A stretch of 63,983 bases of DNA, filler included, from Collodictyon triciliatum (GCA_043381765.1; 8 parts of 8 records of this genome joined end to end with filler, not necessarily neighbours in it); one strand, 5' to 3'. Positions 8,756 through 63,983 are shown, counted from the first letter of the whole stretch. A program made the numbers and translations. The notes: generated by a model not told the origin, from the letters alone.

Positions 8756-8855
8756 NNNNNNNNNNNNNNNNNNNNNNNNNNNNNNNNNNNNNNNNNNNNT
8801 TAATTAATTAANNNNNNNNNNNNNNNNNNNNNNNNNNNNNNNNNNNNNNNNNNNN
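8756..8855. other. Artificial contig-joining linker N44-TTAATTAATTAA-N44
   Basis: The identical 100-bp linker (stops in all six frames) recurs at 17606-17705, 26452-26551, 35298-35397, 44139-44238, 52975-53074 and 61809-61908. Intervening contigs are 8750, 8746, 8746, 8741, 8736 and 8734 bp, i.e. length-sorted. Confidence 0.98.
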
Positions 8856-23253: not shown

Positions 23254-24857
23254 TTATTTCTTCTTGGCAGCACCCTTGGCGGCGGGGGCGGCACCACCCT
23301 TCTTGGTCTCGACCTTGCGGGTGACCTCCTTGATGACACCGACGGCGACGGTCTGGCGCATGTCACGGACGGCAAAGCGGCCGAGGGGAGGGTAGTTGGC
23401 ATAGGACTCGACGCACATGGGCTTGGAGGGGACGAGGGTGACGATGGCGGCGTCGCCCGACTTGATGAACTTGGGGGCAGCCTCGAGCTCCTTGCCAGAG
23501 CGGCGATCGATCTTGGTCTTGATGTCGGCGAACTTGCAGGCAATGTGGGCGGTGTGGCAGTCCAGCACCGGGGTGTAGCCGTTCTGGATCTGGCCGGGGT
23601 GGTTGAGCACAATGACCTGGGCCGAGAAGTCGGAGCACTCGAATGGGGGGTCGTTCTTGGTGTCGCCGGCGACAAAGCCGCGGCGGATGTCCTTGACCGA
23701 GACGTTCTTGACGTTGAAGCCGACGTTGTCTCCGGGCAGGGCCTCGGGCAGGGCCTCGTGGTGCATCTCGACCGACTTGACTTCGGTGCTCACACCCGAG
23801 GGCGCAAAGACGACAGTCATGTTGGGCTTGAGGATGCCGGTCTCGACACGGCCGACGGGCACGGTGCCGATGCCGCCGATCTTGTAGACGTCCTGCAGCG
23901 GCAGGCGCAGCGGCTTGTCCGTGGGGCGCTTGGGCGGCTCAATCAGGTCCAGTGCCTGCAGCAGGGTGGGGCCCTTGTACCAGGGCAGCAGGGGCGAGGC
24001 CTCAAGCATGTTGTCGCCGGTCCAGCCAGAGATCGGCACGAAGTTGACCTTCTCGGGGTTGTAGCCCACCTTCTTGATGTACGACGAGACCTCCTTCTTG
24101 ATTTCCTCGTAGCGCGACTCGGCGTAGTTGACCGTCTTGTCGTCGAACTTGTTGAGGGCGACGATCATCTGCTTCACACCGAGCGTGAAGGCCAGGAGGG
24201 CGTGCTCGCGGGTCTGGCCGTCCTTCGAGATACCGGCTTCGAAGCCTCCGGTCGTCGAGTCGATGACCAGGATGGCGCAATCGGCCTGCGAGGTTCCAGT
24301 GATCATGTTCTTGATAAAGTCGCGATGGCCGGGGGCGTCGATGATCGTGATGTAGTACTTGGGGGTCTCGAACTTCCACAGGGCAATGTCGATGGTGATA
24401 CCGCGTTCACGCTCGGCCTTCAGCTTGTCAAGCACCCAGGCGTACTTGAAGGAGCCCTTGCCCATTTCGGCGGCTTCCTTCTCGAACTTCTCAATGGTAC
24501 GCTTGTCAATACCACCGCATTTGTAGATGAGGTGGCCGGTGGTGGTGGACTTTCCAGAGTCGACGTGTCCAATGACCTAATAGTCCGGATGTTGGGTTGG
24601 TCGTGTGTCACTGGGTCTCACAGTAGGGCTTTGGCCACGTGAGAGTTCTAGGGGGTGGTGAGAGGCTGCTTGTGGTCAAGTGTGAGGGAAGGTGCGTCAA
24701 CTCGTCCTGGCCTCTAAGCGGAAGGCTAGTTGCTGCCTGGGCTCAGTTCGTGCCCCTCCCTCCAGCTTCTTGAGCCACAAGGTTGACTCTTCCCACGGGG
24801 AGAGGGAATGAGGGAAATACTTACGACAATGTTGATGTGAGTCTTCTCTTTGCCCAT
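23254..24857 (-). CDS. EF1A: Translation elongation factor 1-alpha (exons 24857-24825 and 24576-23254)
   Basis: [37 protein letters not shown]... through [23 protein letters not shown] intron at 24824-24577; strong C/G-ending codon bias. Confidence 0.99.
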
Positions 24858-26182: not shown

Positions 26183-26551
26183 TGATTTTTTTTTTTTTGT
26201 GGTTAATTTACTATCAGGGTACAGGCACAGAATAAAGACATGGATTTATTTTCTCTGGGTAGCATTAAATTAGCAATACAAAGGGAACGGGTGATTATCC
26301 TATTCAAATAAGCTTAATCTTACTCGAGAGAACTTTGGAGCTGTAAAAGCTGTGATGATGCTTCCTTTTCGTCAGTTACTTGCTAAAAGAGATATAAATT
26401 TCATTCCATTAGAATTTGAAACTTGGAACAACTTGAGGGGGGGGGGGGGGANNNNNNNNNNNNNNNNNNNNNNNNNNNNNNNNNNNNNNNNNNNNTTAAT
26501 TAATTAANNNNNNNNNNNNNNNNNNNNNNNNNNNNNNNNNNNNNNNNNNNN

Positions 26552-26669: not shown

Positions 26670-28585
26670 AAATTTCAACTCTAGCTCATGGACAAAGTCA
26701 TCGGATTTCCAAAAGCGTTTTTTTCTGGATCTCTGCAACGCCACTATTACCTTGTTATGACTCGACTCGGCCCCAGTCTTCATGATTTGCATGAGAGATA
26801 TAATAAGCAATTCAGCTTGAAAACAATCCTTATGCTTTCTCTCAGAGGCTTACAAATTCTTGAAGCTGTTCACGAAAAAGGTTTCGTCCACTCAGATATC
26901 AAACCAGAAAATTTCCTGATGGGATATGGCGATGATGAAAACCAGCTTTATTTGGTAGACTTTGGCTTAAGCTTGCGATGGATTTTACCAAATGGGCGTC
27001 ACATTCGCATTCGTGAAAATAAAATTGGAATCACAGGCACTCTCAGATACTGCAGTTTAAACACACATACTGAAATTGAGCTTTCTCGGCGCGATGACCT
27101 TGAATCTCTCATCTACACAATGATATATCTGCACAAAGGGATGCTTCCGTGGCAGGGTCAAACAGGAACAAAGGAAGAGAAGAGACTGAAAGTGTACTCT
27201 ATTAAGCGCGCAACACCCCCGAGAGATTTATGTAAAGGGCTCCCCACTGAATTTGCCCAGTAAGCGCTTAATGACAAGGAAAATCAACACCAACATCAAA
27301 CCAATTTTTTTATTTTATTTTATTTTATTTTTAAAAAAGTACAATCCATTTATCGGGGTATGCACTCACGAATAGCTATGAGTCGTACATACGTTCATTT
27401 TGAATCTTGAACACCTTTAACCATATTCTTTATATATGTCAATCTTTAACCATTATTCGCAACAGATTTTTAGATTATGTCCGCTCCTTAAAGTTTGATT
27501 CGACCCCGGAATATAGTCTTTGCCGTAACCTAATCAAAAAGGCACTTTCATCCATCTCCTGTACGGATGATGGGCTCTTTGAATGGGTCACAAACCGTGG
27601 CTATACTCCCTTAAATCGAGCCAAGCGCCCAAATGATGCCGATTTGACTTACCTTCCCCCGACCAAGCGCATTCGCCAAATCTCACCAGAAGAGCTCACC
27701 AAAGCCCAATGGATTGTAACAGTGACGAGGAACCACGAGGGACAGATCCAAAAGTGCGCTCGCGAGAGTGATTACAACACGCTAGTAGAATGGCTGAAGA
27801 CGCACGGCTGGGGGAGCGACCACGGGCTTTACATCACGTCTCTTGTGCATTCCCAGGAACAAGATGGCGGGACCATGTGGAACTGCATCCTATCATCCAA
27901 CACGCCGTTCACGTCGCAGCAAATCAAAAAGTGCTCCTCCCCAATCTCTGCGGAGGCCTGGGCTAAGAAAAAGAGGCAGGAAAACTACAAGGTCACGTGC
28001 ATCTCCGGCCACGTGCACAACTCCTGCGTTGTGGTGGTTGTTTCCAGAACTGACGAGGTCTCGCCTCCACAGGTGATGACCTTCTGCGAGACGTTCCCTC
28101 GTTGCTGGATTGAAACGCAGTGGAGGCAAGGCTACTTCATCACATGCATGGGCGTTGCAGGCGCATTCTGGCTCATCGTCATGACCCAAGGCTCAAACTT
28201 TTATTCCCGGCAATGGTTCCAAACATCACAGACGTTCCCTGCACAGCCCATCAAGGAGCGCTGGGCGTCGGGCTTGCGGGTGACGTCCATGGCCTCCAAG
28301 GACAAGATCTTTGCCTTGGTCATGTCCCAGCTGACTGGGCGCGCCACATCCCAGGGATACAACAGCAGCTACTCTTGGCCTGCCCAGTACATCACAGAGG
28401 CTGAGGGGCAAAACAGGTATGTCACCTCGGTTGTCTGGAAGCTGGAGAATCAGCTGGGTGTGCTACGCGACTCTCACTCCCAATCCTTTCCATTTTTTTC
28501 CACCCAAAGTGACAGGTTCTATCGCGCCCTATCAAGCCATTCTTTATCTCTCCGACCGATTCAATTTTTATTCATTTTTTTTTAA
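26670..28585 (+). CDS. Casein kinase 1-family kinase with MUT9-like (MLK/PPK) C-terminal repeat domain; 5'-partial, intron 27260-27466, 3' end uncertain
   Basis: CK1 motifs HSDIKPENFL, DFGLS, GTLRYCS and SRRDDLESL. The C-terminus has QWIV...GLYITSL...W..ILSSNTPFTSQ...FPRCWIETQWRQGYFITCM...FPAQPIKERWASGLRVTSMA, matching the plant MLK C-terminal pattern. Confidence 0.88.
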
Positions 28586-29144: not shown

Positions 29145-32100
29145 TTAAGCGCCCTGTTTTGGGTTTGGTTTGTCCTCTCCAAGTACGCTGAGCTGACCTA
29201 GTATATCGAATCCGCTATCCGCCGTTGTTACGTTACCATAATCAACCTGGTAGCCTCGTAAGGCGGAGTGTGATGTCCAGACCAGGAGGAGATCAATTTT
29301 ATTCCCATCAGCCGTTGGATCCAATTTTGGCCTCCAAACATACGTGAATCCATTTTCTCCTGTTGTTATAATGACATCGTTCTCTGGACAATATTTTATA
29401 GCTCTGACTTGATTGTGGACCGTGAGCTCGTAAAAAACTTGTACATCCTCAGGTCCTCTAGCAGTAGTCGGCGAATTTATAATATATAGAACTCCGCTCT
29501 TTCCTCCGTAGATTATGTATTCATCTTTGCCGATAATGAATGTATCTAACGCGTAAATAGGTGTTTCTGATTCAACGAGTATAACCTCCTTATGATTTGG
29601 TTCTCCAGTCAAGGACAAGTCAAAGTCAAGGCGACAAATGATTCCGTTTTCGTCTCCTACTACAATGGATAAATTGCTGGGGTCGTCGTTGGTTCTCATG
29701 AATACAGGCGCGATGGGTCTATCCACTTCACTAAATGGCTTAACTTGAGCCAGGATATTAGGGTTAATTCGGATTCCTGTCTTTGTTCCATCCGGTTCAA
29801 TTTCACGGCAGATGACTACACCACTTTCCATTGTGACAATGAAGGGATTTGGCCTGTTGGGGAGAGACTGAACAGAAAAGACAGATATGTCTTTCGTTAT
29901 CAATAGTTCCTGGGAAGGTTGATGGGTGACAGATTTTGACGGCTCAGAAGAGAGACACTCGGCATACAAAGTGGAACGCGTGCAGTAAAACAGGTAATCA
30001 TAGTTGCGAATGCCTACAATTTTGAAACAAATGATACCATCTACCGCAGTAATTGACTTTGCCGGGTAGCTGGGGTCAAAAGGATTGATGCGGGTTAATG
30101 TCCTATTTCTATCTGTCAACTGGTAATATATTTCAGCCTCTCCTTTCACTTTCCTTGCAGTCAGTCTGTAAACTTGAGAGTGCAGAATATGAGAGGAAAG
30201 ACAATTGCCCAAAGAAATATCCCAGACTTTGATATGTTTGTCACTGCTCCCAGTAATCAGTAATCCAGATGTATTTAAAACATCTGAAAGTAATTTCTCC
30301 TGGTGGTTGCTTGGAGTGACTGGTATTCTCGGTGGGGTTGAAAAAAAGACAACTGAAAGTGTGTTAATAGCTTTCTGGTGTCCTCTAGCCTTCTTGATGA
30401 GCTCCGTCGATGAGAGATTCCATATCCAAGCAGATTTGTCCTTACTGCATCCAAGCAAGTAATATGAATTGGAATACTCAAAAATATGCACAGTAGATAC
30501 TTCCTGCATATGGCCGAAGAAAGGCCGAACAAGATTTTCTTCTGCAACATTCCACAAGTAAACCATTCGGTCTGCATCCGAGGAGATCAGTAATTCAGGT
30601 TCGCCATTAAGGGCAGGAAGCCATGCAATATCTAAAATACTCTTATCGTGACGGTTGGTTAATTTCTGATAACATTTGTGGCCCTCAGTCTCCCTGTCTT
30701 CGCCAAATGCTCTGGAATCATTCTTTAAGAAACTGGTTGTATCGAATAAAAGTATGTCACTGCCCACAGCAACCGCAATTTTGTATCGGTCCTGGTACTT
30801 TATCGATCGAATCGCCTTCACTTGTTTGTCAGCCGAGTGCATTTTCCCAGCATTTACAAAATCAAAAGATTTTTTTTCTTTATCATAAGTAACCTTTGAA
30901 ACGTTAATGCAAGGAAGCTGTCCACCATAGATTACATATGAATCGGACTTTTCATAAAAAAAGTCAAGTGACCGAATGGAAAATAGCTCCCTTTTAAGAG
31001 ATACGACGACCGATGAATTCGGTTCTGTTTGATACTCATTGATATTGATTTTACATATTCCGATTCTATTATCCAAACCAGAATAAGCAAATACTACTTC
31101 TTCGGGCATTTTGCCAAACCCAAGAGAGTCCTTTAACTCCTTGCTTGTGTGGATGGATGTAATTTGACCACTACCACCCAGAGTATCGCACTCTAATTTA
31201 ATTTTGGTTTCAAATGTAAGGGAGTCCCAGATGTAAATTTTCCCGCTTCCATCGCCTGTGATCATATATGTTTTGCAATCAGTCATGGTTATGGCTGTGA
31301 CAAGCACATCAGGTTGTTCCGCGCTGTGTTTGTTATACTCGTTGGAACTCAGATAGCAGGACTCAAGATCGGACGAGTAAATTTTCCCCTCTGAGACAGT
31401 AAACAATGTTGATGAATTATCCACAATTCCAACATAGCCATGAGACACAGCGTCTTTGTGTTCGACCTTTGGTAGCTGTCCAAAGTTTGCCCCATCCATT
31501 CTTGCTCGTCCAAAGCGGCAGCCACTCACATCTGCATCCATGAATGATACATTTTCAAGATTAGCGCCGCTAAAATTCACACATTGTAACACACTTTGAG
31601 AGAGGTCAGCCCCAGATATATTTACGCCTGCAAATTCAGAGCAATGGAGAGGGATGCGCGCATAATTCAGTATTGTAATTGCCATACTTGCACACTTTGA
31701 ATAATGTAAGTCTCCAGGCTGCTGTGCAGAGAATTTAACAATTTCAATTAGTTTTTCTGCAAATTTCAAATTACTTGACGTGTAATCAGCCACAAATTGC
31801 TTTATCAGAATATCCTTTTCCTCAAGGCTAGAGAGCAATGACCTCCTTGTCTTCCATGCTGCTGTCTTCGAATCCACCTCCTTAACAATCATTTTGGCCC
31901 CAAAAAATTCCTGGATGGAACGGTGGACAAATCCAAATTTCTCCACATCTTTGGATGCCTCAAAGCACCGTATCATCACACCTTTTCGAATTTCCTTCAT
32001 ATGAGGAGTGTCATTAAAGAACGATTCCCATAGTACATCTGATGCTCCAGTCCTTCTCTTTTGCACAATGGCCACTGTTGTGCCCTCTTTGATGAGGACC

Positions 32101-34919
32101 GCTGCAAATTTCATCGACCAATTATCGAATTTATTTTTTGTAAGGTTTCTGTTTCTGGATTTTTTTTCGCTTTCCAGATGGTATTTTGTGATGAATTTGT
32201 CATAAATCTGAAAACGAGAGAGAACATCATCGCAGCGTATTGCGTGTCTTTTTTCCTCTAAATATTCGGGTAAAACCTCCATAATCATAGACAACACGAA
32301 AGGTGACCCAGCGGCCTCCTTGAGGTCCGAGGAGTTGAAAATCTTTGATGTGAGCATCTCTTTCGTCATGGATGAATTTGGAAAATTAGTCATGTGCTTG
32401 GCGATGTACTGTTTAATTTGGTCTTCACAAAAGGGCTGTATGACCAACAAGGAGAGAGGTTGTTTTTCGGGATGCCCTTCTTCATAGCCGTTGGCATGTA
32501 AATGTCGACCAAACTTATTCTCCAGATCAGCTGGTGTTTCTTGTACATTGTAACGGTATGTTATGATCACGTGTCGATCTCTAAATATGCGTTCATTTGC
32601 TTGTATCACATTGAAAGCCCCTGCATCTCTGAGTTCGTCATATCCATCCAAAATGAAAACAATCTTGGATGATTGTTGAAGGACTGTGCGCTGTGACTCA
32701 ATTTCCCTTCTAATGAAGCTGCCAATGTCCCTCGGATTTTCGACAGCAGGGAGGTTTATAGAGATAACTTTGATGTTTGACTCGCCGTCGTTAGAGGTGC
32801 GGAGCCTTTCTGCTTCGTTCCTTACGAAAGTCGATTTCCCGTAGCCTGACTTACCAAGCACAACAAGAGTACCAGGATTGTCAGAGAGAAAATGATCTAC
32901 GATGTTTTCTGCTACATAGACATTCTCGTCTTCGAATCCTTTTTTTGCACGCAACGGCACATAAATTCTAGATTGGCTAAAATCTTCTCCCTTGGATCGC
33001 ATTTTCTCCTTTTCTTCACGAGCTTGGGTGATTAAGTCTGTTGGGAGGTGAAACTCACTTGTATGCAAAACGGAAGTATTTAGTTTCTCGAGGCTTTTAC
33101 CAAGTTCCTTTTCTAATAAACGAAGAAAGATTGTTTTCTTTGATCTTGTGGTCTTCCCGTCGATAATATCTTGAATGTGCGATATAAAGCCCTCCTTTTG
33201 GCTCAGTTTTCGAAGCTGATGGATGATGTGGTGACCATAGCCGATGCTCTGAGCCTCCATGAAATCATCGTGGGTCATTCTTTCCACAACCAAAAAGGCC
33301 CCGTTTGTACATTCTTTGTAAGGCAATTGAGCGATGCGAACAAACTCCTCGACGACAAACCAAGCGAACTCTGACGTTTTATCGGTCTTGAATATATTGT
33401 AAGAGAATGTGACTGCATCTGTGTATCGATGGGACAAAACGATGGATTTCAGAAATATGTAGTTGTCGTACCATTCTTCTCTGCCGTTCTTTGACCTAAA
33501 ACTCCTGCGCGCGGTCTTGTATTCGTTCATGATATTTGTTGCTTTATCAGAGACGCGGTCTTTAATGAATTTTTCATTGTGTTTTTGATAGTCCAGTGCA
33601 AACGATTCCATGTTATCTTTTGATGATATGCGCAAAAATCCTTGGTATGCCTTCTCAAACACTGGAGTGTTCCTGGGTTGCTGGCTGATGTTGGACTCCA
33701 ACAAGAGTGCCGTGATATTGCGGATTTCCTCCTCACTGAGATACGAAATATCGAACCTCTGCTTGCGCAAGACAATGGCATCGAAGAAGGCGCTGGCGGA
33801 GTGAATGAAGAATTGTGTCTTGAAGGCGTCTTCAGATTCTGGGTCCTTCATTCTGCAGAGCCTCCTTAGGACATTCTCGAGGACTTTCTGCACCATTATG
33901 AGTGTGGATGCGTGGTTTGAGAATAAGAGAACCTCACCAACGCATCGCACATAGTGCGGCTCATCGCAAAGTGACTCCTTCTGGGAAGCTCCTCGGAGTG
34001 TCACCTTTGACATGGACGCCTTCTTGGGCGACACACTGCCGTCGGTATTGCCGCTATCCGAAGCAGCCGGTATGACCGTGATGATGGGCCAGAGCGCCGT
34101 GCAGACGGCCGGGTCGTACGAGCGGGCAAGAAGGCCGATTTCCGAGATGTGGCGCACCGTCAAGACTGGAGCGCACTCGACAATCTTGGCCATGGTCAGG
34201 GCCAGGCTGTGCAGGTCGCTATCGGCCGGGTGGAAGCGGATGAGATGCGCCAGGTCCAGCACGTTGTTTGCCCGCCCCTCCTGACGCCGCCCCTTCCAGC
34301 TGCACAGCTGCGCGTGGTCGACGCCTTGGAACGGCTGCGTGCTCGTCCTGCCGGCTTCCGCCTCCTCTTGCCCTCTATTCGCGCCCGGCACCGCCTCCGC
34401 CTCCGCCTCTGCCTCTGCCTCTGCCTCTGCCTCTGCCTCTGCCTCTGCCTCTGCCTCTGCCTCCGCCTCTGCCTCCAGAATAACCTGGCCCTTGAATGCC
34501 GAGTGCACAAGGCCGCCGCCGCAGAGCCGCGGATGAAGGCTGACGCGTGCAGCATGCTGTCCTGTCCCGTGCCACTCGATGCGTGCGCTGAAGCTGCCGC
34601 AGCCGCCGCTGGCCAGGGCCGCCTCCATGGTCTCCGTGTCGCACGCGAAGAGAACCTCTGCAGGCATCCAGGTGGCGGTGGCGTCGTGGCTGCGGTCTCG
34701 CACTTGAACCTCCACCTGCATGCCCGTGTCGCAGTCGAGAGGAAGGATGCGCACTTCCGGTTGGGCACTCTCGTCGGTTGGGTTCATGACTTTTGTCTGC
34801 CTGTGCGAGCAGGATAGAGACATGATGGGGATGACATGTGACGGGGAGGAAACAAAATGAAAGAGAGACGCAAGTAGAGAGAAAAAGTGTCGGTGCCACA
34901 CAGGGTGGTGGGTGTTCAT
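29145..34919 (-). CDS. NLR-like STAND protein: NACHT NTPase, pentapeptide repeats and WD40 repeats; true start uncertain, possibly 34788
   Basis: 1924-aa ORF with Walker A GKSGYGKST, Walker B VFILDGYDE, winged-helix motif FVHRSIQEFF, pentapeptides GADLSQSVLQCVNFSGANLENVSFMDADVSGCRFGRARMDGANF, and WD motifs (GHMQEV...SKDKSAWIWN, GSSDKHIKVWD). Confidence 0.92.
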   Translation of the reverse strand: MNTHHPVWHRHFFSLLASLFHFVSSPSHVIPIMSLSCSHRQTKVMNPTDESAQPEVRILPLDCDTGMQVEVQVRDRSHDATATWMPAEVLFACDTETMEAALASGGCGSFSARIEWHGTGQHAARVSLHPRLCGGGLVHSAFKGQVILEAEAEAEAEAEAEAEAEAEAEAEAEAEAVPGANRGQEEAEAGRTSTQPFQGVDHAQLCSWKGRRQEGRANNVLDLAHLIRFHPADSDLHSLALTMAKIVECAPVLTVRHISEIGLLARSYDPAVCTALWPIITVIPAASDSGNTDGSVSPKKASMSKVTLRGASQKESLCDEPHYVRCVGEVLLFSNHASTLIMVQKVLENVLRRLCRMKDPESEDAFKTQFFIHSASAFFDAIVLRKQRFDISYLSEEEIRNITALLLESNISQQPRNTPVFEKAYQGFLRISSKDNMESFALDYQKHNEKFIKDRVSDKATNIMNEYKTARRSFRSKNGREEWYDNYIFLKSIVLSHRYTDAVTFSYNIFKTDKTSEFAWFVVEEFVRIAQLPYKECTNGAFLVVERMTHDDFMEAQSIGYGHHIIHQLRKLSQKEGFISHIQDIIDGKTTRSKKTIFLRLLEKELGKSLEKLNTSVLHTSEFHLPTDLITQAREEKEKMRSKGEDFSQSRIYVPLRAKKGFEDENVYVAENIVDHFLSDNPGTLVVLGKSGYGKSTFVRNEAERLRTSNDGESNIKVISINLPAVENPRDIGSFIRREIESQRTVLQQSSKIVFILDGYDELRDAGAFNVIQANERIFRDRHVIITYRYNVQETPADLENKFGRHLHANGYEEGHPEKQPLSLLVIQPFCEDQIKQYIAKHMTNFPNSSMTKEMLTSKIFNSSDLKEAAGSPFVLSMIMEVLPEYLEEKRHAIRCDDVLSRFQIYDKFITKYHLESEKKSRNRNLTKNKFDNWSMKFAAVLIKEGTTVAIVQKRRTGASDVLWESFFNDTPHMKEIRKGVMIRCFEASKDVEKFGFVHRSIQEFFGAKMIVKEVDSKTAAWKTRRSLLSSLEEKDILIKQFVADYTSSNLKFAEKLIEIVKFSAQQPGDLHYSKCASMAITILNYARIPLHCSEFAGVNISGADLSQSVLQCVNFSGANLENVSFMDADVSGCRFGRARMDGANFGQLPKVEHKDAVSHGYVGIVDNSSTLFTVSEGKIYSSDLESCYLSSNEYNKHSAEQPDVLVTAITMTDCKTYMITGDGSGKIYIWDSLTFETKIKLECDTLGGSGQITSIHTSKELKDSLGFGKMPEEVVFAYSGLDNRIGICKININEYQTEPNSSVVVSLKRELFSIRSLDFFYEKSDSYVIYGGQLPCINVSKVTYDKEKKSFDFVNAGKMHSADKQVKAIRSIKYQDRYKIAVAVGSDILLFDTTSFLKNDSRAFGEDRETEGHKCYQKLTNRHDKSILDIAWLPALNGEPELLISSDADRMVYLWNVAEENLVRPFFGHMQEVSTVHIFEYSNSYYLLGCSKDKSAWIWNLSSTELIKKARGHQKAINTLSVVFFSTPPRIPVTPSNHQEKLLSDVLNTSGLLITGSSDKHIKVWDISLGNCLSSHILHSQVYRLTARKVKGEAEIYYQLTDRNRTLTRINPFDPSYPAKSITAVDGIICFKIVGIRNYDYLFYCTRSTLYAECLSSEPSKSVTHQPSQELLITKDISVFSVQSLPNRPNPFIVTMESGVVICREIEPDGTKTGIRINPNILAQVKPFSEVDRPIAPVFMRTNDDPSNLSIVVGDENGIICRLDFDLSLTGEPNHKEVILVESETPIYALDTFIIGKDEYIIYGGKSGVLYIINSPTTARGPEDVQVFYELTVHNQVRAIKYCPENDVIITTGENGFTYVWRPKLDPTADGNKIDLLLVWTSHSALRGYQVDYGNVTTADSGFDILGQLSVLGEDKPNPKQGA
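34392..34476 (-). repeat. Coding (GAGGC[A/G])n hexamer encoding poly-(Glu-Ala)
   Basis: Tandem GCCTCT/GCCTCC units on + strand, in frame within the NACHT ORF. Confidence 0.95.
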
Positions 34920-35208
34920 TGCGACGGAGCGATCTCTGATTGGCGGTGTGGATTTGCGCTGCTCTGGCCGTGCCTGTCATGCCGTGTGGGTTATTGAGGA
35001 TCAAAAGATTCTGGGAGTCGTGCCTGCTTATACCTTGTGTTGGTGATAACATTCAGTGAATTGGTGAGAGTTTGGAAATTCCAGGTTTGGTTTCTTTGGT
35101 GGGGTGCTGTGCTTCAACCAGAGCGTTCTCTGAATCGCCTGCCGAATTCCCGCTGCAGTTCCTTAAGTGATATGTATGTATGTTTGTTCATGGAGCGAAA
35201 AGAAAAAG

Positions 35209-35297
<89 letters not shown>

Positions 35298-35397
35298 NNN
35301 NNNNNNNNNNNNNNNNNNNNNNNNNNNNNNNNNNNNNNNNNTTAATTAATTAANNNNNNNNNNNNNNNNNNNNNNNNNNNNNNNNNNNNNNNNNNNN

Positions 35398-43860: not shown

Positions 43861-44365
43861 CTAAGGTAAAAGCTTTTGAGTATGATTGTATTTGAGATTT
43901 TTTTTAAAACTTTTTATTTGGTCAAAATTTTGATAAGCTGATAAAAAAAAGTTGTAAATGAGTTGGTACATGTGGAACGCCTGCATTTCCAAGAATCTTG
44001 TTTCTCAAGGAGCGAAGCATTTCTAGAACTGAGGATTCCATCCTACAAAAACGGTTTAAAGTAAAAAGAATAAAAAAAAGAATAAAAAAAAGAATAAAAA
44101 AAAGAAAAAAAAAAGAATAAAAAAAGAATAAAAAAAGANNNNNNNNNNNNNNNNNNNNNNNNNNNNNNNNNNNNNNNNNNNNTTAATTAATTAANNNNNN
44201 NNNNNNNNNNNNNNNNNNNNNNNNNNNNNNNNNNNNNNTGTTGTTTTTTTGTGTTGTTTTTTTGTGTTGTTTTTTTGTGTTGTTTTTTTGTGTTGTTTTT
44301 TTGTGTTGTTTTTTGTATTGTTTTTTTTTTCAAAGCGTTTAATTTAAATGAAATTGATTACTCAG

Positions 44366-47300
44366 ATGTCAGTACACACAAGATGAACTTTTATCGATGA
44401 AAATGGAAAATGCATTTCAAATTCTTTTGAAATACTATGGTGAAACATGTCCTTTATACCAAGAAGGATTTGGTGATAGAATTTTATCATCTTTCAAGCA
44501 TGGAAATCGCATACATTCGTTTTCATCAGGAAATAGTGTGTCTGAATTGGATTTAAGGGATGAATGTGCATCACTAGAAGCACATAGTTCAATGGAACAA
44601 AATATTTTCAAGTCGAAGAATTTTGAAGCCCCATATTTCCAAACTATTTTCCGTGCAGATAAGACCAGAAGTGAAAAGACTATGAGCCAATATGACCTAC
44701 TAGTTCAATTTTATGAAACCCTCGAGGGTATTGATTGGTTTGACGATAGCGGTTGGAAGAATTTGAGTATTCCCTTATGCGATTGGTATGGAATTCAGTG
44801 TTATAAACGCTGCTCGGTCAAGGAGTATCTGGTTTGTTTTTCAATTATCTGTGTATCATTATGTTCCACAAACCATGTCGCTCATCGCATATTTACATAG
44901 GGTAATACATGCCCTATCGTTGGGTTTGCTATGTCAAGGAATAATCTTAATGGAGACATTAGCAATGCTTTTTCAATAATTGAGAAATTTCCATACCTGG
45001 CTGATATAGATTTTGGATTCAATTTGATATATGGGAACTTAACAGACTTTAATCTACCAAGCTTGCTGTCGTTGAATTTACTAGGGAATAGGATAACCGG
45101 AACAATACCAGACTTTAAAGGGATTCCGAATATTGACAAACTGCAGTTGAGTGCAAATGACTTAGAGGGCACTATGCCTGATTTCTCGAATATTAGATTG
45201 GTAACGACTATAGATATTGGATTGAGCAATAAAATAACAGGTTCCTTTTTTTTATTTCTACTTTCTACTTTCTGATTTCTGATTTCTGATTTCTGATTTC
45301 TGATTTCTGATTTCTGATTTCTGATTTCTTTTCGTATTATTCCTTTCATAGATTACTTTTTTCTTTATTTATATAAATATATACCTACTTATTTACGTAT
45401 TTATTCATTTATTGATTTATTGATTTATTGATTTATTGATTTATGGTATCATGTTTCATTTTACAAATCTCTTCAGGTACCATACGATCTATTCTTTAAA
45501 ATGTTTCTGAAATAAAAGTCCTTTTTTTTTTAGGATCATTACCGGATTTTTCCGGGTTACTTAATATCGAGACGCTTTTAATTCATGGGACTGAAATTCA
45601 TGGTATATATATTTGTTAAAAAAAAAATATAATCAGTATCTGATTTTAAGGACCATAGGACCGATCCCGGATTTTAGCAGCATTCCAAAAATTAGATTTA
45701 TCATTCTTTACAGTAACCAACTGGATGGTGAGTAACTTACAGTTTTTTTTTGGATGAAACGTGATACCCTAATTTACTCACCTATATACAGGAACCATTC
45801 CAGACTTTCGATATATGATAAACACCAATACCATAAGTCTCTCTCGGAATCGACTTTCAGGTAATTTTTTTATACCTAAGTGCTAGTTCCTTGACTGCAA
45901 ATTTTCTAGCATGAACACATAAATTGATGTCTTAGGAACAATACCAGATTTCAGGAGCTTCCCAAATGTTAAAACAATACTTCTCGTTAATAATGTATTT
46001 TCGGGTTGGTTGCTTAAATGTGTTTACTTTAAGAGTGACATGCTTGTTGTATTGTACCCATTTAATAACGAGAATCTTTAAATCACAGGAACTGTTTCAG
46101 ACTTTCGATATATGCCTGAGATAGAAGATATATTTTTCGATGTTAATCAGCTTAGTGGTTGGTTTTAATGAGGATGTTACGTTTCTCTTTTTCGAATTAA
46201 ATGGTTTCATTTATTCAATTTTTAGGCAGTATTACTGACTTCAAAAATACTCCAAAGATACAGATACATAGCTTTCTGATAAATATATTGAGTGGTTAGT
46301 TAAAATTTATCCAAGACAACATCATCCTCGTACCTTAAAGACTAAATTACTCCTGTTTTTCAAATTAGGCACAATTCCTGATTTCGAAAATATCACAAAT
46401 ATCAAAATCATGGACCTCTCACTAAATCAAATATTTGGTGGGTTTGATCGATTCTATCAAGAATTTGAATACCCTTTGTTGTTCTAACATCAATATTGAA
46501 AAATCAAGAAAATTAAACAAAATACCTAAAGGTACTATCCCTGATTTTAAAATACAATGCATCTCTTTTTAATCAGCTTTTTCAGCAACCATCTCAGTGG
46601 TATGTACAAAAATCACGCATTCATCCAAATTTTCTGAATAGTCATAGAAAAAAATTGTATTCTACCTTTTAATGTAGAGTAATAAAAAAAAAATTAAAAA
46701 ATATTTCCAGGTACCATTCCAAACTTTAAAAGTCTTCATTATCTCAGGATGATTAGCCTGTATGGGAACGAACTAACTGGTTAGATAATATTTCGGCCAT
46801 CAATATTTAGAAAAAGTGTTCAATTTTTTCATATTAACTGTAGGAATGATCCCAGATTTTTCAAAGACACCAAATATGGAGTGGATAGTTCTAGGAGATA
46901 ATAGGCTTAGTGGTGGGTATTATGTAAAAAGGTATATTGACATGAAATAATCTTCATTCCTTAAGTTCTTCATATATTTAGGGAAAATTCCAGAATTCAG
47001 CAACGTTCCAAACATAAAATCATTCAGCTTCTTCAACAACCGTCTTAGTGGTAAACTGCATAATTAACGACACAAATGCGCGCCACGATTTTAATGCGTG
47101 TGCTCATGACGAAATTTGACCATGAATTAGGAACAATACCTGACTACCACAACATCACAAAAATTGAGTTGATGGACTTTTCCATCAACCAAGTATATGG
47201 TAAATATTGTCTTCGGCGTGGTATTAAGTACATATTATGTGTTTATTTAATATTTTTTATTTTAGGGACTATACCAGACTTTAAAGGCATTCCAAATGTA

Positions 47301-50300
47301 AGATTGATTAGCTTTTTCAGTAACCAACTAAGTGGTAAGATTCTTTTCATCAACGCATTGGATTACATTTCCTATCCAATGGTTTTTTATTCTTTGAAAT
47401 CGCATTATGAAAAGCTAATTCTTTGATTCCACTAAAAACACTTTAAGGGACAATGCCGGACTTTAGTGGAATTCCTGGTGTCATTTTACTTGATTTTTCA
47501 ATCAATCAAATATACGGTAAGACGTTTAAAGATGGTAGCCAGGAAACCTTGTTCTCAATTTTTCTTATAAAAAAATCACTTAAGGAACCATTCCCGAATT
47601 TAATTACGTTCCCAATGTGGAAAGAATCGGTGTCCACAGTAATCATCTAACTGGTGAGATTTTCATCCTCCCATGTCATTATGGGAATAAAATTTCGAAT
47701 ACTGACCGAAATAATCAAAATAGGAACGATACATGATTTCAAAAGTATCTCAAAGGTTTCCTGGATCGATTTTGGTAGTAATAAACTTCATGGTAGGAAT
47801 CAATTTATAAGAAAGAAAAGAAAATGTCGGTAAACAAGACATGTTGATTCATTCCTATCTCCAAATTTAGGAACTGTTCCAAACTTTGGTAATATTTCCA
47901 TGATTCAAAGGCTCGGACTATACAGTAATCAATTGGAAGGTAATATTTATTTATACATGTAGTGTTTATTTATTGATTTATTAATTTATCATGCGAATAA
48001 AATGTGATGGTAATGTATCCTTTTTAAAATAAATAAATAATAGGAACTGTTCCAAACTTTTCCAACATTCCAGATGTTCGTTCGATTTATCTTTTTAGTA
48101 ACCAACTTATTGGTAGGCCTTAAAAATATAAGACATCAGTCGCCTGAACATTTTCATCTGAATATGTTTTTTAAAACTGTAGGGGAAATTCCAGATTTTA
48201 AAAATATCACGAAAGTCGAGAGAATTTACCTCTCAATTAATCGACTTAATGGTAATCTATTTACTGAATTCATTACAAAGAACAATTGATAAAGAATCTG
48301 TAAAACATCTATTATTTATTAGGAACTATTCCAAACTTTTCGAATGTAAGAAATCTGCAATATCTCTCAGTTTACGATAATTTGATCGAGGGATTTGTTC
48401 CAAATTTTGAACACTGTCCAAACCTGAAGGCTTTACTAATGTTCAGAAATCATTTTATCGGAACCCTACCTTCTTATAAGCTATCATTCCTAGAAATTTT
48501 AGATGCTGCTGAAAATCAAATTATCGGCTCTATTCCTCACGATTTCTATTTACCATCGATTGAATATATCGATTTATCAAGAAATGAAATGAATGGGACT
48601 GTACCAAATTATTTCGAAACTTTAACGAATTTGGAGTCACTAATTCTATCACACAATCAGTTCTCAGGAAGTATGCCCGACATGTTTTGGAAATTACCGA
48701 AATTGGTTACAATTGACTTGAGAAATAACTTATTTTTTGGAGATGTCAGTGTATTTATATCTCCTGTATCAACAGACTATGAATACTACTATGAAAATCT
48801 TCTTCTTGATGACAATCAATTGCATGGAGGTCTTAATTGGTGGATTTTCAATTTCGTCCTAAATCTAAAAATACTGAGTTTAAAGAATAATAATATTACT
48901 AAGCTCGGTGAACTCACTAACCTATTGAAGTGGAGTTCTCTAGACCTTTCTGGGAATCCTATCTCCGGTAGCATACCAGAATCATATAATCAGTTTTCTA
49001 AACTTGAATATCTAGGACTTAAGAACACTCCCATGAATCATGGGAGTGCTAACTTTCTTCCTGACTTTATGGATTTCACTTCACCGTTCAATTTAGAAAA
49101 CGAAAAAAAATTATACATATGTCCTTTAATCGTTGCAAGATTGGGTCTTATAAATATGACTGTAGATTTGGATCCAGAGTATTATGACCACGAGTTTTGT
49201 AAATGTCTACCTGGCTATACCGGTTTTGGAGATAATTGTGTGCAATGCCCAAGAGAATGCGAATGTTTCGATGGGGCATCCATAAAAAATTGCTATGCTT
49301 CTCCAAACTTGACTCATGTGAAATCAGTTCTTCCATGTCCGCGATTAAAATCATGTAGAACCGTAATTCCCGTTAAAAAGACCAAGTCTAATACAACGGT
49401 CGAAACCTCCTCTATATGCCAAGAGGGCTATAAAGGACATTTGTGTTCTCAATGCCAAGAAGGATATGGGAGCCAAGGAAGATTATGTGTAAAATGTGAA
49501 AAAGGAACTATATATTCGACCTTGACATTTGGGTTTATTGGATTCAGTATATTCATAATCTTCCTCTATCGCTCAGAAACATCGAAATCAGGTATTTGAA
49601 GCAAGTAGACAACTATTTTTTTGTTATAATATTTTCAACTAAACAAAATTTTATTAAAAAAATAATAGCTAAACTCAAAATTGTCATGTTTCACATGCAA
49701 ACTCTATCCATTATTTCATCTGGGTTCGTTCAGTCGGAAGATGCCAATAAATTTACCGATTATTTGTCATCGATTGGTTCCATTCAAATTCCGAATCTCT
49801 CTTGTGTATTGGGAATGGACAACATGTTCGACTCTCTCTTATTCAGTTTTTCAAGAATACTAGTTTTCATATTCTTCGGGTTGATTACCTATCACATCGG
49901 ACGTAGCCATATTCAAAACAAGGTATGATTAGAGAAGTGATATAGTAAATGTGTTCGCTTTAAAATATAGCTAAACCTGGTAATTATAAACTAGGCAGTC
50001 TTTATTACGCTCAATCTATTGTTCTTCATTTACTATTCGATTGCCAGAGAAGTATTTGGTGTATTTGGGTGCACTGTTTATGACGATGGAGAGGATATTT
50101 GGTATTTAAACTATGCTCCTTGGATACCGTGTAATCCCACTTCGAGAGAGTATCTAAAATTGCTTGGTATATCGATACCTGTATCTGCTTTGTTTTTGAT
50201 CGGATTCCCCATTTTTGCGTGGCAGAAGGTGGGAATAATGTCTGATAAATCTGGATATGAACCAGGAGCTCGATATGGATTCTTGTATTTGCCGTATAAA

Positions 50301-50864
50301 CAGGTACTTCAATTTGCATATATCATGTATCTGCTCGATGTTAACTAGAGTAATTTATGTCTTAGTCTTTAAAGTATTGGGAATTCATCATTATTGCGCG
50401 TCGAATCGCATTTTCGTTTATCACAAGTGTTATTCCTTACACAAGTCCATCAGCCTACTTTTTATTGCTTGTAGTAGTCATCCAGGTTTGGTTTAGCATT
50501 TTCTTCATCTGTACTGCATAAAATATCCCTTTACTATGCACATTAAGAGACCAATCTTATGCAGGGTTCAATATGGATGCAAAAAGAGTACGCGCCTTAC
50601 AATGCTAAGATTGAAAACCAAATGGAATTGTCCAGTCTATATGTTATATTCGTCTCCTTTTTTGTTGCACTTTTGTCGAGCTTGCTAGATTCTCCATCGT
50701 GGATTTCAGTTTTCTTGATTGCAATTAATTCTGTCTGGCTTTTTTATTTTGCAGCAGGAGCTTTCATCATTCCATTTTTTAAGAATAATTCAGTCAAGAA
50801 AAAAATATTGCAGATGAAAAAATTATCGAAAAAATCTTCAACTTTTGATCCTATGTCGCATTGA
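44366..50864 (+). CDS. LRR receptor-like membrane protein: LRR N-cap, >30 plant-type LRRs, Cys-rich region, ~7 TM segments; probably 5'-partial
   Basis: N-cap LVQFYETLEGIDW...GW...LCDWYGIQC; repeats GTIPDFxxxxxLxxIxLxxNxLx; Cys-rich CKCLPGYTG...CQEGYKGHLCSQCQEGY; hydrophobic exons with KLKIVMFHMQ, YGFLYLPYK..YWEF and PYNAKIENQME. Confidence 0.88.
45534..48251 (+). repeat. Array of 19 one-LRR exons of 69 nt (23 aa), all phase-1 introns
   Basis: Exons at 45534-45602, 45659-45727, 45792-45860, 45936-46004, 46089-46157, 46226-46294, 46369-46437, 46532-46599 (68 nt), 46711-46779, 46844-46912, 46982-47050, 47131-47199, 47266-47334, 47448-47516, 47585-47653, 47724-47792, 47871-47939, 48044-48112 and 48183-48251. 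Each has AG/GT borders that split the Gly codon. Confidence 0.92.
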
Positions 50865-52890
50865 ATTCCAAAAAAATTCGTGTCATAAACCCATATGCCG
50901 AGCAACCATTGATAGAATTTGAAACTATTATTCACTAAATACCTGTTTTTTAGAATGGCATAGGCTGTCTCGAAATCGATTTCACTATGCGAAAATGTCT
51001 ACACCAGAATTTTTTTAATTTTGAATCGCCCTTCATGTTTGGATTCTGTATTGCTTACATTTTGGGTGATTATGGTCAAATATATCAATAAATGGTTCAT
51101 ATTTAACTTCATGTACTCACATAAAATAGACTAAAAGTCTGATTGGAATATGCGTTTGTTTTCAGTCTAAAGTAAATATTTCTTGCGGAAATCGATGAAT
51201 ATGCGTTGGGGTGTTTTAATTGCATCCCTTCTCGCCAGAATTAAATGAATTCAATCATTCTCAATATTTTATTTTACTTTACTTTTATATACTTTAATTC
51301 ATTTTATTTTCATTTAATTTCATTTAATTTCATTTATTTTGATTTCATTTCATTTACTTTAATTAATTTAATTTATTCTATTTTAAAATGTATTTTGAAT
51401 AAAAAAATTTTACATTATAGTGCTGGAAACTATTCGAAGTCTCTCAGCCTATTTTAATTAATGAGTATGTCTTCCAGTGATAAAGAGCATGTGGTTCTCG
51501 TTCCAAAATAGTAAATGGTTCAGATAAATTTTCCAAGATTAATATTTATATGCAAATCCACAACACAACTATATGTGAGTATAGGATTTGCCTGTAAAAG
51601 TACTTATGGTTTTCGCTTGATAGTTTTGTTTTGTTTTTTAGGGCTCAAGTCATTTTTTCCTTTATCATATTTTTTGGGGCTGTATACTTGTGGATGCATA
51701 ATCAATGTTGCTTAACATTCGTCTATCTATTAATTTTGTTGTAATAAATAGAATCTACCCGAGTGTGTAACAGCGATGATAAGAGACGAGGCAAGACTGA
51801 AAAATGCACCTTTTCGCGCATATTACCCTATCTGCACAAGAGTTAACTGAAGAGATTCGTCTGAAACCCCCTATGTTTACCAAGTATATTATATTTATAT
51901 TTCAAATGATAGAAAGCAAACATCTGCCCCTTTTTACAAGAAAATCCGTCTTTTGTTCTTACAACCCGGGCAATACGCTCCTTGTCAGCTGATTGTTGCA
52001 AGGTGCATGTATTTTGTGCATACAAGAGGGTCTATGGTAGCTGTGTTCCTAAAGAGACATCAAATGCTTCAAAATAGTTCGAAAAATCACCTGAACCAAT
52101 ATTCAATCGTGTTTCTAAATCATGGTGACATATGTGGTGCTTTTGGTGCGTTGGGCCTCGTTTTGTTCTATGGAAAGGAGAGGGATTTGTATCATCAACC
52201 CGAAAATCATGTTTCTTGTTCCCTTTTCTTGATTCGGTATGAAAAAGCAAAACGGCAACGATGTTTTTTTTTCTTTTTTTTGGTATTTTCGTATTGTGTC
52301 TCGCTACTTGTTTAATGGTCAATTATATGAACTACTTTTATCGGTGGCGTAATCTTGAATCCCCGCGCACCGCTACGAACCAGAAAAGAAAGAGCCAGAA
52401 AGCAGAGACACAGAGATGAGGGCCACACAGCCAATCGCAAGCCTCCTGCTGTTGAATGGGGTTTGTAAATATTCAGAAGCGTATGAGATATCCTTTCCAT
52501 CACGACAAACAGAACTCATCGATCTACGCTGCTGCTTTTCCACTTGCCTTCCCGACGCCACCTTCGCTGACCCAAACTATTTCGCATAACTCTAAAGACT
52601 GTGCGCGAGGATGAGGATGAAGACGATGAAGTCAGTGATGAGTACATAGTGGTTAACTGGGTTCATTTTGCAGTCTTTACGGTTCTATTTATTGTCGCTT
52701 CGATTCAGCTTTACCGAATCGCGTGAGTGTCTCACTTCAACTTGCTGATGCGTAAATCCTGCAGTTCTTGTTGTACTTGCTTTTCTCTTTAAAAAAAAAA
52801 TTGTAACCACAATCAAATCATCTCCATCAGAGTTTAAGAATTTATGTAATTTAATAAAATCGATTAATTTAGATTTTCTGTTTTTTTTTT

Positions 52891-52974
<84 letters not shown>

Positions 52975-53181
52975 NNNNNNNNNNNNNNNNNNNNNNNNNN
53001 NNNNNNNNNNNNNNNNNNTTAATTAATTAANNNNNNNNNNNNNNNNNNNNNNNNNNNNNNNNNNNNNNNNNNNNTGTTCAGGAAGCTGTATTGCACGAGG
53101 CTCTCAAGCCTGGCTACATTGATTTCTCGTTCGGGTGAATCATTGGAGCGAGAGAATGCACGCACACTCCATAGGGATCGA

Positions 53182-61790: not shown

Positions 61791-63983
61791 GGGGGTGTTT
61801 TTTTTTTTNNNNNNNNNNNNNNNNNNNNNNNNNNNNNNNNNNNNNNNNNNNNTTAATTAATTAANNNNNNNNNNNNNNNNNNNNNNNNNNNNNNNNNNNN
61901 NNNNNNNNGTATTCCAGGCTATCGAGCTCCTCTCAATTTGGAGAAATCCCGATGGTGTTTTAATATCGGACAGAACAATTTCTTCGGACTGGAATACTGT
62001 AATCTAAGGCGATTCAATTATTGGTATTTTTTTAAAAAAAAATAATATGAATCGAATTGAAAGGTATTATATTTATCCACAACTCCCAAAATTTAAAAGA
62101 GACTTTAATTATTTAAGAAGGAAGACCTTATCGTTATATTTGAAGTACAATACGCTCGATCTGAATAGGGGATGCTTGCAGGTTGAATTCGATCACGTAA
62201 TATTTGTTGTATATTATCAACATCCAAAAATTTTCCGAACGAAATATTTAAAGAGTCTACCGAGGTGTTGATTTGAAATAATAAAAATGTGAATGTTTCC
62301 AATAAAATAGAAAAGAAATGAAACAGAATTTAGATTAGAAGACTCACTTTCAGACAACTCTGACCACGGAGTCGATGCACCACACACAGAGCAGACGAGT
62401 AAATATAATATTTATCATCATGAGGCTGTCCGGCTTCTTATGAACAGCCATATCGATCCTCACATTGTGATGTATGAAGCTACGAGTATGACTAAACATG
62501 TCTCTCTTACACTCAGACTTTGACAAAGATTCTCTCAGAAAGCATGCTTGCATCAAAAGTACCAAATCGAATGTCCTTATGAAAAATGTTGTGAAATTGG
62601 TGTTTGAGTGATTTGAAAGGAAAATTTTGAAATGGACATTAAATGTGGTTGATACATCTCATTTTTCAAAGGTTAAAATGAAAAAAAATAAACATGAATA
62701 AATGGATAGACATAATAAAGTGAAAAATGAAGAGGTAAATGTATCAGCTCATATTTCCTTACAGAGGCAGTATAATACTGGGTAGATACTAGTTTTGGTT
62801 CCTCGCAAACCGAAGGTGGGTCATTACAATGTTTGAAATCAAAAAGTATATTTTCTGGTGCCAATGGATTTCATCATATATATCAAGGTCTTTTCTTCCA
62901 CAAAGTAACTCAGATATTGATTAGTGTGTCTATCTAAATCAAATCGGTAGAGCGTCGTGGTCTAGTCTATGATCTTTTAGATGCAACTTTTGACTGATGT
63001 CATCTGGAGCTACCTCCCATCTTGAAAGAGTATGTGGTGCAGTTGGAAACTCTACGCCATACGACATAGAGAGTTCTTGAGAGGAAGTTGGCTCTTTGCC
63101 TGGATTTTGGAGAATATTTGGCCTGGTATCTTTTCTTTGCTGGACCTGTTGCTCTTGGATTCTATTCCGATTTGGTGATTATCATGGCTTGGCACTCATC
63201 AACAGTGATGTTCAACTTGCAATGGCGAAGGGCATACGTGGCAAACTATGTTTTTGTTTCAGCATTTTAGTGCCCTATATTCGAATTATCTCTCGAATGA
63301 ATAAATAACATATCCGTAATATATTAGGTAGTTTATCACGGAGACAAATATGAAGGAAATCACTTCACGATTGGATTGGTCAATGTAGTTAGATTGAGAA
63401 TACCAATATCATTTCTTTCACAGCCACCAGCGTTTCTTGGTCTCCGCCTCGTAATATAATAGAGCATCCCAATGTGGGTCACAGCCATCAGAAACATCAA
63501 TGTTTTCCTTTGTCCCTCACCAACACGAAAGGATTCAAGGCGAAACTCATGGCACATTGTCGGCTCTATATCTTGTATATCATCTATAAAAAAATATCGA
63601 GTGATATATAGCAATATATATATATATATATTACGAGCTGCTTGGGTCATCTTGAATAAGAGAGAGAAAGAGAAGGAATCAAAGAAATAATATGATTGGT
63701 GAGTCTGTAAAATATTCCTTTAAGAAAGGTGTTACAAAATAATATAGGGAAATGTTTCCTTTAATTTTTAGAGGATTTAATGGCACATTATTAGTTAGCG
63801 CCAACAATTTATCAAATGACCATCTATATGGCATTAAGATTTTTACCTATCGAGTTGTAAATCGTATGGCCTACTAAACGTTGGATTCTGGCCAGAACAC
63901 GAGGTTTTATGTTGAGTATTAGCGATATCTTCTCCTTAAGCAAAAATTCCTGTGCTTGGCGAGAAACAGACTTTTCCACGAGC

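Follow-up and report, generated by a model that had tools for sequence, protein, structure and literature searches.

Nineteen one-repeat leucine-rich repeat exons in a receptor-like gene of Collodictyon triciliatum

One-repeat exons in known systems and in Collodictyon

Tandem exons that each encode one leucine-rich repeat (LRR) are known from ROCO genes of Ectocarpus and from LRR genes of Tetrahymena, and these were the precedents when an initial annotation of a 63,983-nt stretch of DNA from Collodictyon triciliatum (GCA_043381765.1; the whole stretch is called the window below) proposed that 19 symmetric one-LRR exons at 45534-48251 form a receptor diversification system, driven by exon shuffling or alternative splicing. 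The precedents are as cited, in the portions of the published accounts available (PMC3341825, PMC11378527, PMC6564038). Of the proposal itself, the receptor-like LRR protein and the evolutionary duplication of exons stand, but an active diversity generator does not. We consider it probable that the array arose long ago, when an exon was duplicated in tandem, time after time, together with its intron, that its exons have since been held at 69 nt and are constitutively spliced into one solenoid, and that this layout lets repeats change in frame.

The closest known kind is the type I LRR exon of brown algae, found in ROCO genes, some LRR-kinases and other LRR loci (PMC3341825, PMC11378527). On the evidence of the available sections of these papers, the two have in common one LRR per exon, tandem exons of equal length, a single intron phase, in-frame gain and loss, and a variable concave face. 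The register is also shared, the Collodictyon repeat, GxIPDF...LxLxxNxLx, opening at Gly in the same way as the published brown-algal GxxPxx...LxxLxLxxNxLx (PMC3341825, as excerpted). The length differs, being 69 nt (23 residues) in Collodictyon and 72 nt (24 residues) in brown algae, as does the partner of the LRR domain, which is a Cys-rich stalk and a multi-pass membrane domain here, rather than the ROC-COR module or kinase given in the accessible text for brown algae. Zambounis et al. described, in the part of their paper available, two marks of shuffling in Ectocarpus: noncoding or inverted LRRs lying in introns, and recombination blocks in dot plots (PMC3341825). Alternative splicing is described for the LRR exons of Ectocarpus ROCO genes in the passages available (PMC11378527). 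We looked for the shuffling marks in the Collodictyon array and did not find them, and saw no alternative LRR isoforms in the one spliced contig that covers the array or in the related protist Diphylleia; in these respects the array is more like the Ectocarpus LRR-kinases, which are modular but, according to the same excerpts, unshuffled.

Tetrahymena offers a second likeness, in that LRR exons of exactly the same length form long arrays in a single intron phase, read as clonal exon duplication. However, the Tetrahymena exons are 90 bp long and in phase 2, and of the tens of thousands present many are young, species-specific and accompanied by similar introns (PMC6564038, as far as the available text goes), whereas those of Collodictyon are 69 nt, phase 1, old and diverged. 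The LRR receptor kinases of rice and other plants, whose LRR regions are rich in introns, resemble the Collodictyon protein in their LxxLxLxxNxLxGxIP core, in a CxWxGxxC cap and in short one-repeat exons, but the rice exons, in the portion of the study available, are mostly 72 nt, have phase-2 introns in the first Leu of xxLxLxx (a different register) and are joined to a kinase signalling part (PMC3050792). The plant study proposes that exons were first duplicated and introns lost afterwards (PMC3050792, from the available text), and intron loss of that type would also explain the intron-free LRRs on the flanks of the Collodictyon array. Human NLRP3 and other NLR genes also have LRR exons that can be removed in frame, and provide the model for a splicing-based role; these, however, are 171-bp exons encoding repeats of the ribonuclease-inhibitor type in a cytosolic sensor, and skipping of NLRP3 exon 5 has been shown experimentally, with a functional effect, in the sections available (PMC6642158), whereas no skipping was seen here. 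Finally, the C-terminal multi-pass domain of the Collodictyon protein and its family is homologous, by an indirect link, to that of proteins matching the Pfam family PF06011, which includes fungal proteins of the Flc1/TrpR type. The listings report no LRR outer domains for the fungal proteins, and the role in calcium homeostasis they describe is a fungal one (PMC9600462, PMC8618638, PMC10732042, each in excerpt). In the literature listings searched, we found no paper on 69-bp LRR exons or on collodictyonid LRR proteins, and no description of a protein class combining an LRR outer domain with a PF06011-like membrane domain.

Layout, splicing and age of the array

The array comprises 19 consecutive exons on the plus strand, all 19 of which have AG immediately before and GT immediately after. 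A script that collected open-frame segments of 60-79 nt between AG and GT, with one carried-over G, returned 18 exons of exactly 69 nt; the remaining exon (46532-46599) has 68 nt in the window. Exons 1-6 (45534-45602, 45659-45727, 45792-45860, 45936-46004, 46089-46157 and 46226-46294) are placed by their borders and by a profile match, and lie outside the RNA cover. Exon 7 (46369-46437) is the one within which the spliced contig described below begins; exon 8 (46532-46599) is one nucleotide shorter in the window (68 nt) than in that contig (69 nt), the contig joints on its two sides being listed as 46436>46531 and 46598>46710. The positions of exons 9-19 (46711-46779, 46844-46912, 46982-47050, 47131-47199, 47266-47334, 47448-47516, 47585-47653, 47724-47792, 47871-47939, 48044-48112 and 48183-48251) rest on both borders and contig, and exon 13 among them is the nearest to the array consensus and has the top profile score. 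The introns between array exons are 56-113 nt long and all interrupt the frame in phase 1, the exons ending in G and the next ones opening with G, such that every junction codon is GGN (Gly).

One LRR of 23 residues, of the form GxIPDFxxxPxIxxIxLxxNxLx, is encoded per exon. The positions G1, I3, P4, D5, F6, I/V12, I/L15, L/F17, N20 and L22 are conserved (entropy 0-1.9 bits), and the most variable are 13, 14, 16, 18, 19 and 23 (2.6-3.0 bits); a fixed scaffold with a variable concave face is usual in any LRR array. Because the length is uniformly 69 nt and the phase is 1 at GGN codons throughout, any exon of the array could be dropped or copied without loss of frame. The structural part of the initial annotation was thus accurate: its 19 one-LRR exons (18 of 69 nt, one of 68 nt) cut in phase 1 within Gly lie where it had placed them, the array is exactly modular as it had said, the scaffold is fixed and the beta-strand positions vary, and the flanking LRRs do lie in long exons (44901-45240 and 48323-49591).

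None of the sequencing runs listed is recorded as RNA, but one of them (X1) was treated as cDNA, since splicing is evident in its contigs and these open with an adaptor-like oligonucleotide, which we take to be of the template-switching kind. One X1 contig, of 2,924 nt and depth 9.4, begins at 46403 inside exon 7 and covers the rest of this exon, exons 8-19 and the sequence downstream. It carries 13 of the 19 junctions that lie downstream of array exons, from 46437/46532 to 48251/48323, all of them GT..AG at the predicted borders, and four further joints beyond the array. The letters of the contig before 48322 consist of 22 adaptor-like ones, 35 nt of exon 7 and 12 × 69 nt, a count that fits the presence of exons 8-19 once each and in genomic order. 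No exon skipping was found in this contig and no skipping joint occurs among the X1 joints listed, with the proviso that assembled contigs lose rare isoforms and that skipping at a low level would escape them. From three other runs (X4, X2 and X3) neither cover nor joints informative on the splicing of the array were obtained, although unspliced metagenome contigs (X3 records 14-18) match parts of it. Some odd joints in X2 and X3, with foreign letters between the joined pieces, were set aside as repeats or as other organisms. Run X4, which belongs to the same study but is labelled as another organism, includes the 3′ end of the transcript (50077-50729), with the same two splice joints as X1 and one base difference in common with it; the two labels may share an organism, or there may have been carry-over.

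The 68-nt length of exon 8 traces to a run of A at 46545-46548, where the X1 contig has one extra A behind 46548 (five, compared with four in the window). The contig thereby reads a 69-nt exon encoding a regular repeat, with the frame open through the rest of the gene. Because the contig reads 69 nt, the shorter form is probably an assembly or strain indel in the A run and not a special exon; none of the DNA runs examined covers 46545-46548. A gene model in which exon 8 is left out also stays open to the stop. Apart from this indel, the contig and the window differ by one substitution in the approximately 860 nt of the array, an R to K change at the variable position 13, compared with six substitutions in approximately 1,950 nt downstream, and there is no sign in this comparison that the array is more variable than the sequence that follows it.

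Judged by their divergence, the exons are old copies of one another. In register, their pairwise identity averages 52.8% over 171 pairs (range 36-70%, maximum 69.6%). Identity at third codon positions is 0.36, against 0.29 expected from composition, and at first and second positions it is 0.61; by this measure, synonymous sites among the exons are near saturation. The 19 introns showed no likeness beyond chance when local alignments were compared with shuffles (mean score 14.9 compared with 14.7, SD 2.9; maximum 30 compared with 29; 171 pairs), and Tandem Repeats Finder (TRF) did not detect the array, reporting only microsatellites on the contig. Adjacent exons are no more alike than distant ones (0.539 compared with 0.528), and no offset between exons is prominent. 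Searches with profiles of the 19 exons, by nhmmer and by six-frame hmmsearch, gave matches to nothing but the array and the LRRs in the long exon on either side of it, every match being on the plus strand, and revealed no relic, intronic, intergenic or inverted LRR exons.

The initial annotation had pointed to traces of duplication within the array, and these exist but appear weak. The two shared words are real, each being an exact 17-base run that occurs exactly twice in the window (45801/46098 and 47868/48041), and exon pairs 7/12 (70%) and 8/13 (65%) are among the most alike. However, column-preserving shuffles produced a shared run of at least 17 bases in 7.4% of 500 trials, and the likeness of the two-exon block 7-8 to block 12-13 had a permutation P-value of 0.105 (5,000 permutations); exon 13, moreover, just happens to lie near the consensus.

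The encoded protein, its relatives and the surrounding gene

As to the gene product, the evidence from this freshwater protist supports a receptor-like membrane protein whose outer domain carries LRRs. Its modules are a cap motif, approximately 33 LRRs, a Cys-rich stalk and a multi-pass membrane domain; the protein would sit at the cell surface, where the LRRs may bind a ligand and the membrane part may act as a channel or in signalling. The nearest proteins were all translated from Diphylleia rotans transcripts (EukProt), a second search adding four more genes, and along the last large exon the protein P0001 is 41% identical (E 4.6e-142). These relatives have the same build, namely a signal peptide, the CxWxGxxC cap, 23-residue GxIPxF repeats, a Cys-rich stalk and the same membrane domain. 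The modules that precede the LRRs differ among the D. rotans proteins, with FG-GAP in P0143 (E 1.5e-49) and NIDO in P0123 (E 1.7e-32), so that domains have been shuffled at the outermost end of the receptor. A scan of metagenomes for related loci gave one weak locus (L001; 31% identity over 59 residues), and index look-ups, made with the sequence and with its relatives, returned no similar stretch.

Pairwise alignment with the window model shows that members of the family differ in the LRR region by whole repeats. P0148 and P0147 have no gap of at least 5 across this region, and P0124, P0007 and P0005 have only small irregular gaps, whereas P0001, P0123, P0151 and P0020 are shorter than the window model. 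In the first three of these shorter proteins the gap blocks are mostly multiples of 23 (46, 46, 23, 92, 23, 46 and 69, with splits of 9 + 14 and 8 + 15), the exceptions being 47, 156 and 5; P0020 has one block that is such a multiple (69), the others being 47, 24, 17, 29 and 42. These alignments support a family whose length changes by whole 23-residue units, as would be expected from gain and loss of exons over evolutionary time. Isoforms of the Diphylleia genes were compared in 10 homologous Trinity genes with at least two open reading frame (ORF) isoforms in 90% clusters (35 ORFs). None of the 10 genes showed an in-frame deletion of 23 residues or a multiple of 23 in the LRR region, although the clusters and assemblies may miss isoforms; the differences found were truncated starts, variant C-termini and one 5-residue indel. 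An apparent gap of 46 columns between isoforms proved to be an alignment artefact. The Diphylleia isoforms argue, if weakly, against routine cassette splicing.

The membrane domain (49669-50864) is distantly related to PF06011, the family of fungal Flc/TRP-like proteins, by an indirect link. A direct Pfam scan of the membrane domain of the family gave no family. An exhaustive phmmer search with the membrane-only ORF P0149 found 1,312 cluster representatives at E ≤ 1e-3, 105 of them at E ≤ 1e-10, and among 44 of these relatives that were scanned, 22 carry LRR families and six match PF06011 at E ≤ 1e-5, four of the six above the cut-off. When the membrane domain of the family was aligned by hhalign with five proteins of the PF06011 type (the four above the cut-off and P0282, just below it), the probability was 100%, with E 1.4e-42 over 332 columns, and the motifs RYGFLY...YWE...RR are common to both. 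An Atlas look-up, which we treat as a lead only, places PF06011 on 12% of one cluster. The model of the P0149 membrane domain (320 residues) has a predicted local distance difference test score (pLDDT) of 76.6 and a predicted template modelling score of 0.70, and that of P0145 (730 residues) a pLDDT of 75.1. The complete build of LRRs, stalk and membrane domain occurs here and in Diphylleia, and LRRs with the membrane domain occur in an amoebozoan, a malawimonad and an anaeramoeba; the members named are from Thecamoeba quadrilineata, Gefionella okellyi and Anaeramoeba ignava (P0226, P0193 and P0207 are among the proteins cited with P0149).

The gene lies on the plus strand of a contig at 44239-52974, limits that follow from pairs of 44-N runs, 12 bases apart, that recur about every 8.84 kb (8756-8855, 17606-17705, 26452-26551, 35298-35397, 44139-44238, 52975-53074 and 61809-61908). 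The 12 bases between the N runs near the gene (44183-44194) are TTAATTAATTAA, with a stop in every frame. The window appears to consist of contigs of about 8.74 kb strung together by spacers, with the paired N runs as the presumed joints; on this reading, genes on separate segments need not be neighbours, nor even come from the same organism. The 5′ end of the gene, with the start codon and signal peptide, lies off the contig, and the Diphylleia homologues extend further upstream, with a signal-peptide-like start. The first exon on the contig is at 44366-44535; X1 record 1 covers 44364-44535, preceded by 56 loose 5′ letters that match nothing in the window, and splices 44535 to 44659, removing a 123-nt GT..AG intron (44536-44658). 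This intron is in frame and also reads open. The following exon (44659-44831) encodes the cap motif CxWxGIxC ahead of the LRRs; the motif is kept in P0001 and P0002, and the CxWxGxxC form is conserved across the family, while LRRNT_2 (PF08263) matches the exon weakly (E 0.038; 14.7 bits compared with a cut-off of 20.7). The donor of this exon (44831/44832) is predicted by homology. X1 uses a donor approximately 46 nt further upstream, its pieces stopping at 44784 and restarting at 44900; in piece coordinates this choice removes 115 nt, which would lose the conserved GIxC of the cap and shift the frame, and it is possibly a nonproductive splice form or a quirk of assembly.

A long exon of about four LRRs (44901-45240; LRR_8, E 2.9e-4) follows the cap; its final base is the G that opens a Gly codon (phase 1). 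The 293-nt intron between it and the array (45241-45533) contains two microsatellites detected by TRF, ATTTCTG × 10.9 (45254-45329) and ATTTATTG × 5.8 (45399-45444). On the other side of the array is a long exon of 1269 nt, phase 1 at both ends (48323-49591; X1 record 2 covers 48322-49589), which contains two more 23-residue units, about eight irregular LRRs, the Cys-rich stalk and the first membrane helix. Pfam matches at 48325-49590 are LRR_4 (E 2.1e-23), LRR_8 (E 3.1e-19) and LRR_1 (E 1.4e-16), and the stalk matches DUF7630 below the cut-off (E 4.7e-4). The membrane domain continues in exons at 49669-49922 (49667-49920 in X1 record 2), at 49995-50303, likewise seen in X1 and holding a conserved Cys loop and the RYGFLY motif (from the family alignment), and at 50366-50485, seen in X1 and with joints also in X4. 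The last coding exon (50565-50864, from X1) closes with a TGA stop at 50862-50864. When a placeholder fills the one-base indel, the gene model remains open for 1,445 codons, as far as this stop.

Elsewhere on the contig there are microsatellites at its start (44239-44327, a 13-mer × 6.9) and 3′ of the gene (51265-51386), and a run of 94 T at its end (52881-52974). On further segments of the window there are a GC-rich EF-1alpha ORF of 440 amino acids that lacks introns (23254-24576, minus strand), a single open frame of 1,943 amino acids (29145-34976, minus strand) and kinase-like ORFs (26685-28585, plus strand). An Rfam scan of the window gave no match.

Origin of the array and its meaning

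The history we propose would begin with one unit of exon and intron, cut in phase 1 in the opening Gly codon, that was copied in tandem many times, most likely by unequal recombination in introns. Selection would then have preserved an exon length of exactly 69 nt even as the sequences of exons and introns diverged, and at present the exons would be spliced in series into one long LRR array. The symmetric layout would allow repeats to be gained or lost in frame over evolutionary time, which fits the whole-unit length differences among family members. The intron-free 23-residue units on both flanks may reflect later loss of introns or an array that grew from an internal unit, and either fits.

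The same symmetry could instead serve splicing, with the array a set of cassette exons whose regulated or stochastic skipping yields receptor isoforms with different LRR surfaces. Any subset of 69-nt, phase 1-1 exons joined at GGN codons would stay in frame, the gene without exon 8 remains open to its stop, and there are precedents in the Ectocarpus LRR exons (PMC11378527) and NLRP3 exon 5 (PMC6642158), as described in the available parts of both papers; in addition, the use by X1 of a nonpredicted donor in the 5′ part of the gene indicates that splice choice is not rigid. However, the X1 contig reads through the rest of exon 7 and has exons 8-19 once each and in order, with no skipping joint listed, and in Diphylleia rotans no in-frame LRR cassette difference was found in the 10 genes and their 35 ORF isoforms, the differences lying at the N- or C-terminal ends. 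On these grounds we consider the alternative splicing put forward in the initial annotation improbable. Its other suggestion was exon shuffling, in which case the array would be a hot spot of recombination, within the gene and with paralogous loci, that quickly renews binding specificities, on the pattern of the brown-algal ROCO genes. The whole-unit differences between family members, the identical 17-base runs in two exon pairs and the likeness of exons 7/12 (70%) and 8/13 (65%) are what such a process could leave. Against it, no pair of exons exceeds 70% identity and the mean is only 53%, synonymous sites are near saturation and introns are alike only at the level of chance, and both the 17-base runs (7.4% of trials) and the block (P = 0.105) fall within the range of the shuffles. 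The intronic, inactivated or inverted LRR exons that mark shuffling in Ectocarpus, in the excerpted account (PMC3341825), are absent from the array, and X1 differs from the window by one base and one indel in the array compared with six bases downstream. Shuffling of this kind in the present day is therefore hard to credit.

A more prosaic explanation is that the gene is broken, the 68-nt exon shifting the frame of a pseudogene, or that the array is a mis-assembled repeat. The frame does break with this exon, many stops follow, and the assembly is fragmented and gapped. However, the exon has 69 nt in an independent spliced contig whose frame stays open across the remainder of the gene, the array exons differ too much (53% identity) for an assembler to have collapsed or mis-joined them, and the unspliced metagenome contigs of X3 match parts of the array; we regard this explanation as very improbable.

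Several results nevertheless weigh against the history proposed for the array and the account given of its protein. The RNA over the array is a single assembled contig, with exons 1-6 outside it. The window's own 68-nt exon 8 breaks the frame, with many stops after it, and were this length real in the strain, skipping of exon 8 would be needed to keep the gene open. The exact 17-base runs in two exon pairs could be traces of later local copying or conversion. In the comparison with Diphylleia arrays at the variable positions, there was no unit-by-unit correspondence (collinear-path z of −2.1 to 1.5 in seven proteins, an eighth being without a score, and the repeat-finding pattern having missed many units, with only one found in P0143, for example), and no register was prominent in three proteins; conserved exon order across species is neither supported nor refuted by these alignments. 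As to the membrane domain, PF06011 gave no match for the membrane exons of the window, and none at E ≤ 10 for the membrane domain of P0001. The P0149 model had no clear solved relative, the best Foldseek match against the PDB having E 0.33 and the best in a wide VIA-align search a Z of 8.8 (root-mean-square deviation 3.2, 118 aligned), within the helical-bundle background.

A broader possibility is that a large class of sensors, so far undescribed, exists in protists, with an LRR outer domain and Cys-rich stalk placed directly on a channel-type membrane domain like that of Flc/TRP proteins, and that the 69-nt exons are its adjustable element; the recognition surface would in this lineage be re-tailored by exon gain, exon loss and low-level skipping to give a channel-coupled repertoire for the recognition of prey or microbes, independent of the plant, animal and brown-algal systems. 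We hold this possibility to be speculative and unlikely. With the Collodictyon array, the use of one-repeat LRR exons extends to a deep-branching lineage of protists allied to Diphylleia. Its register, as in brown algae but one residue shorter, reflects either great age of this intron position in plant-type LRRs or a solution reached repeatedly. The array is also a clean negative example, in that perfect exon symmetry alone is no proof of a working diversity generator. The more useful by-product is the protein class itself, an LRR outer domain joined to a PF06011-like multi-pass domain in several protist supergroups; if the membrane part is a channel, these proteins would be ligand-sensing channels of a new build.

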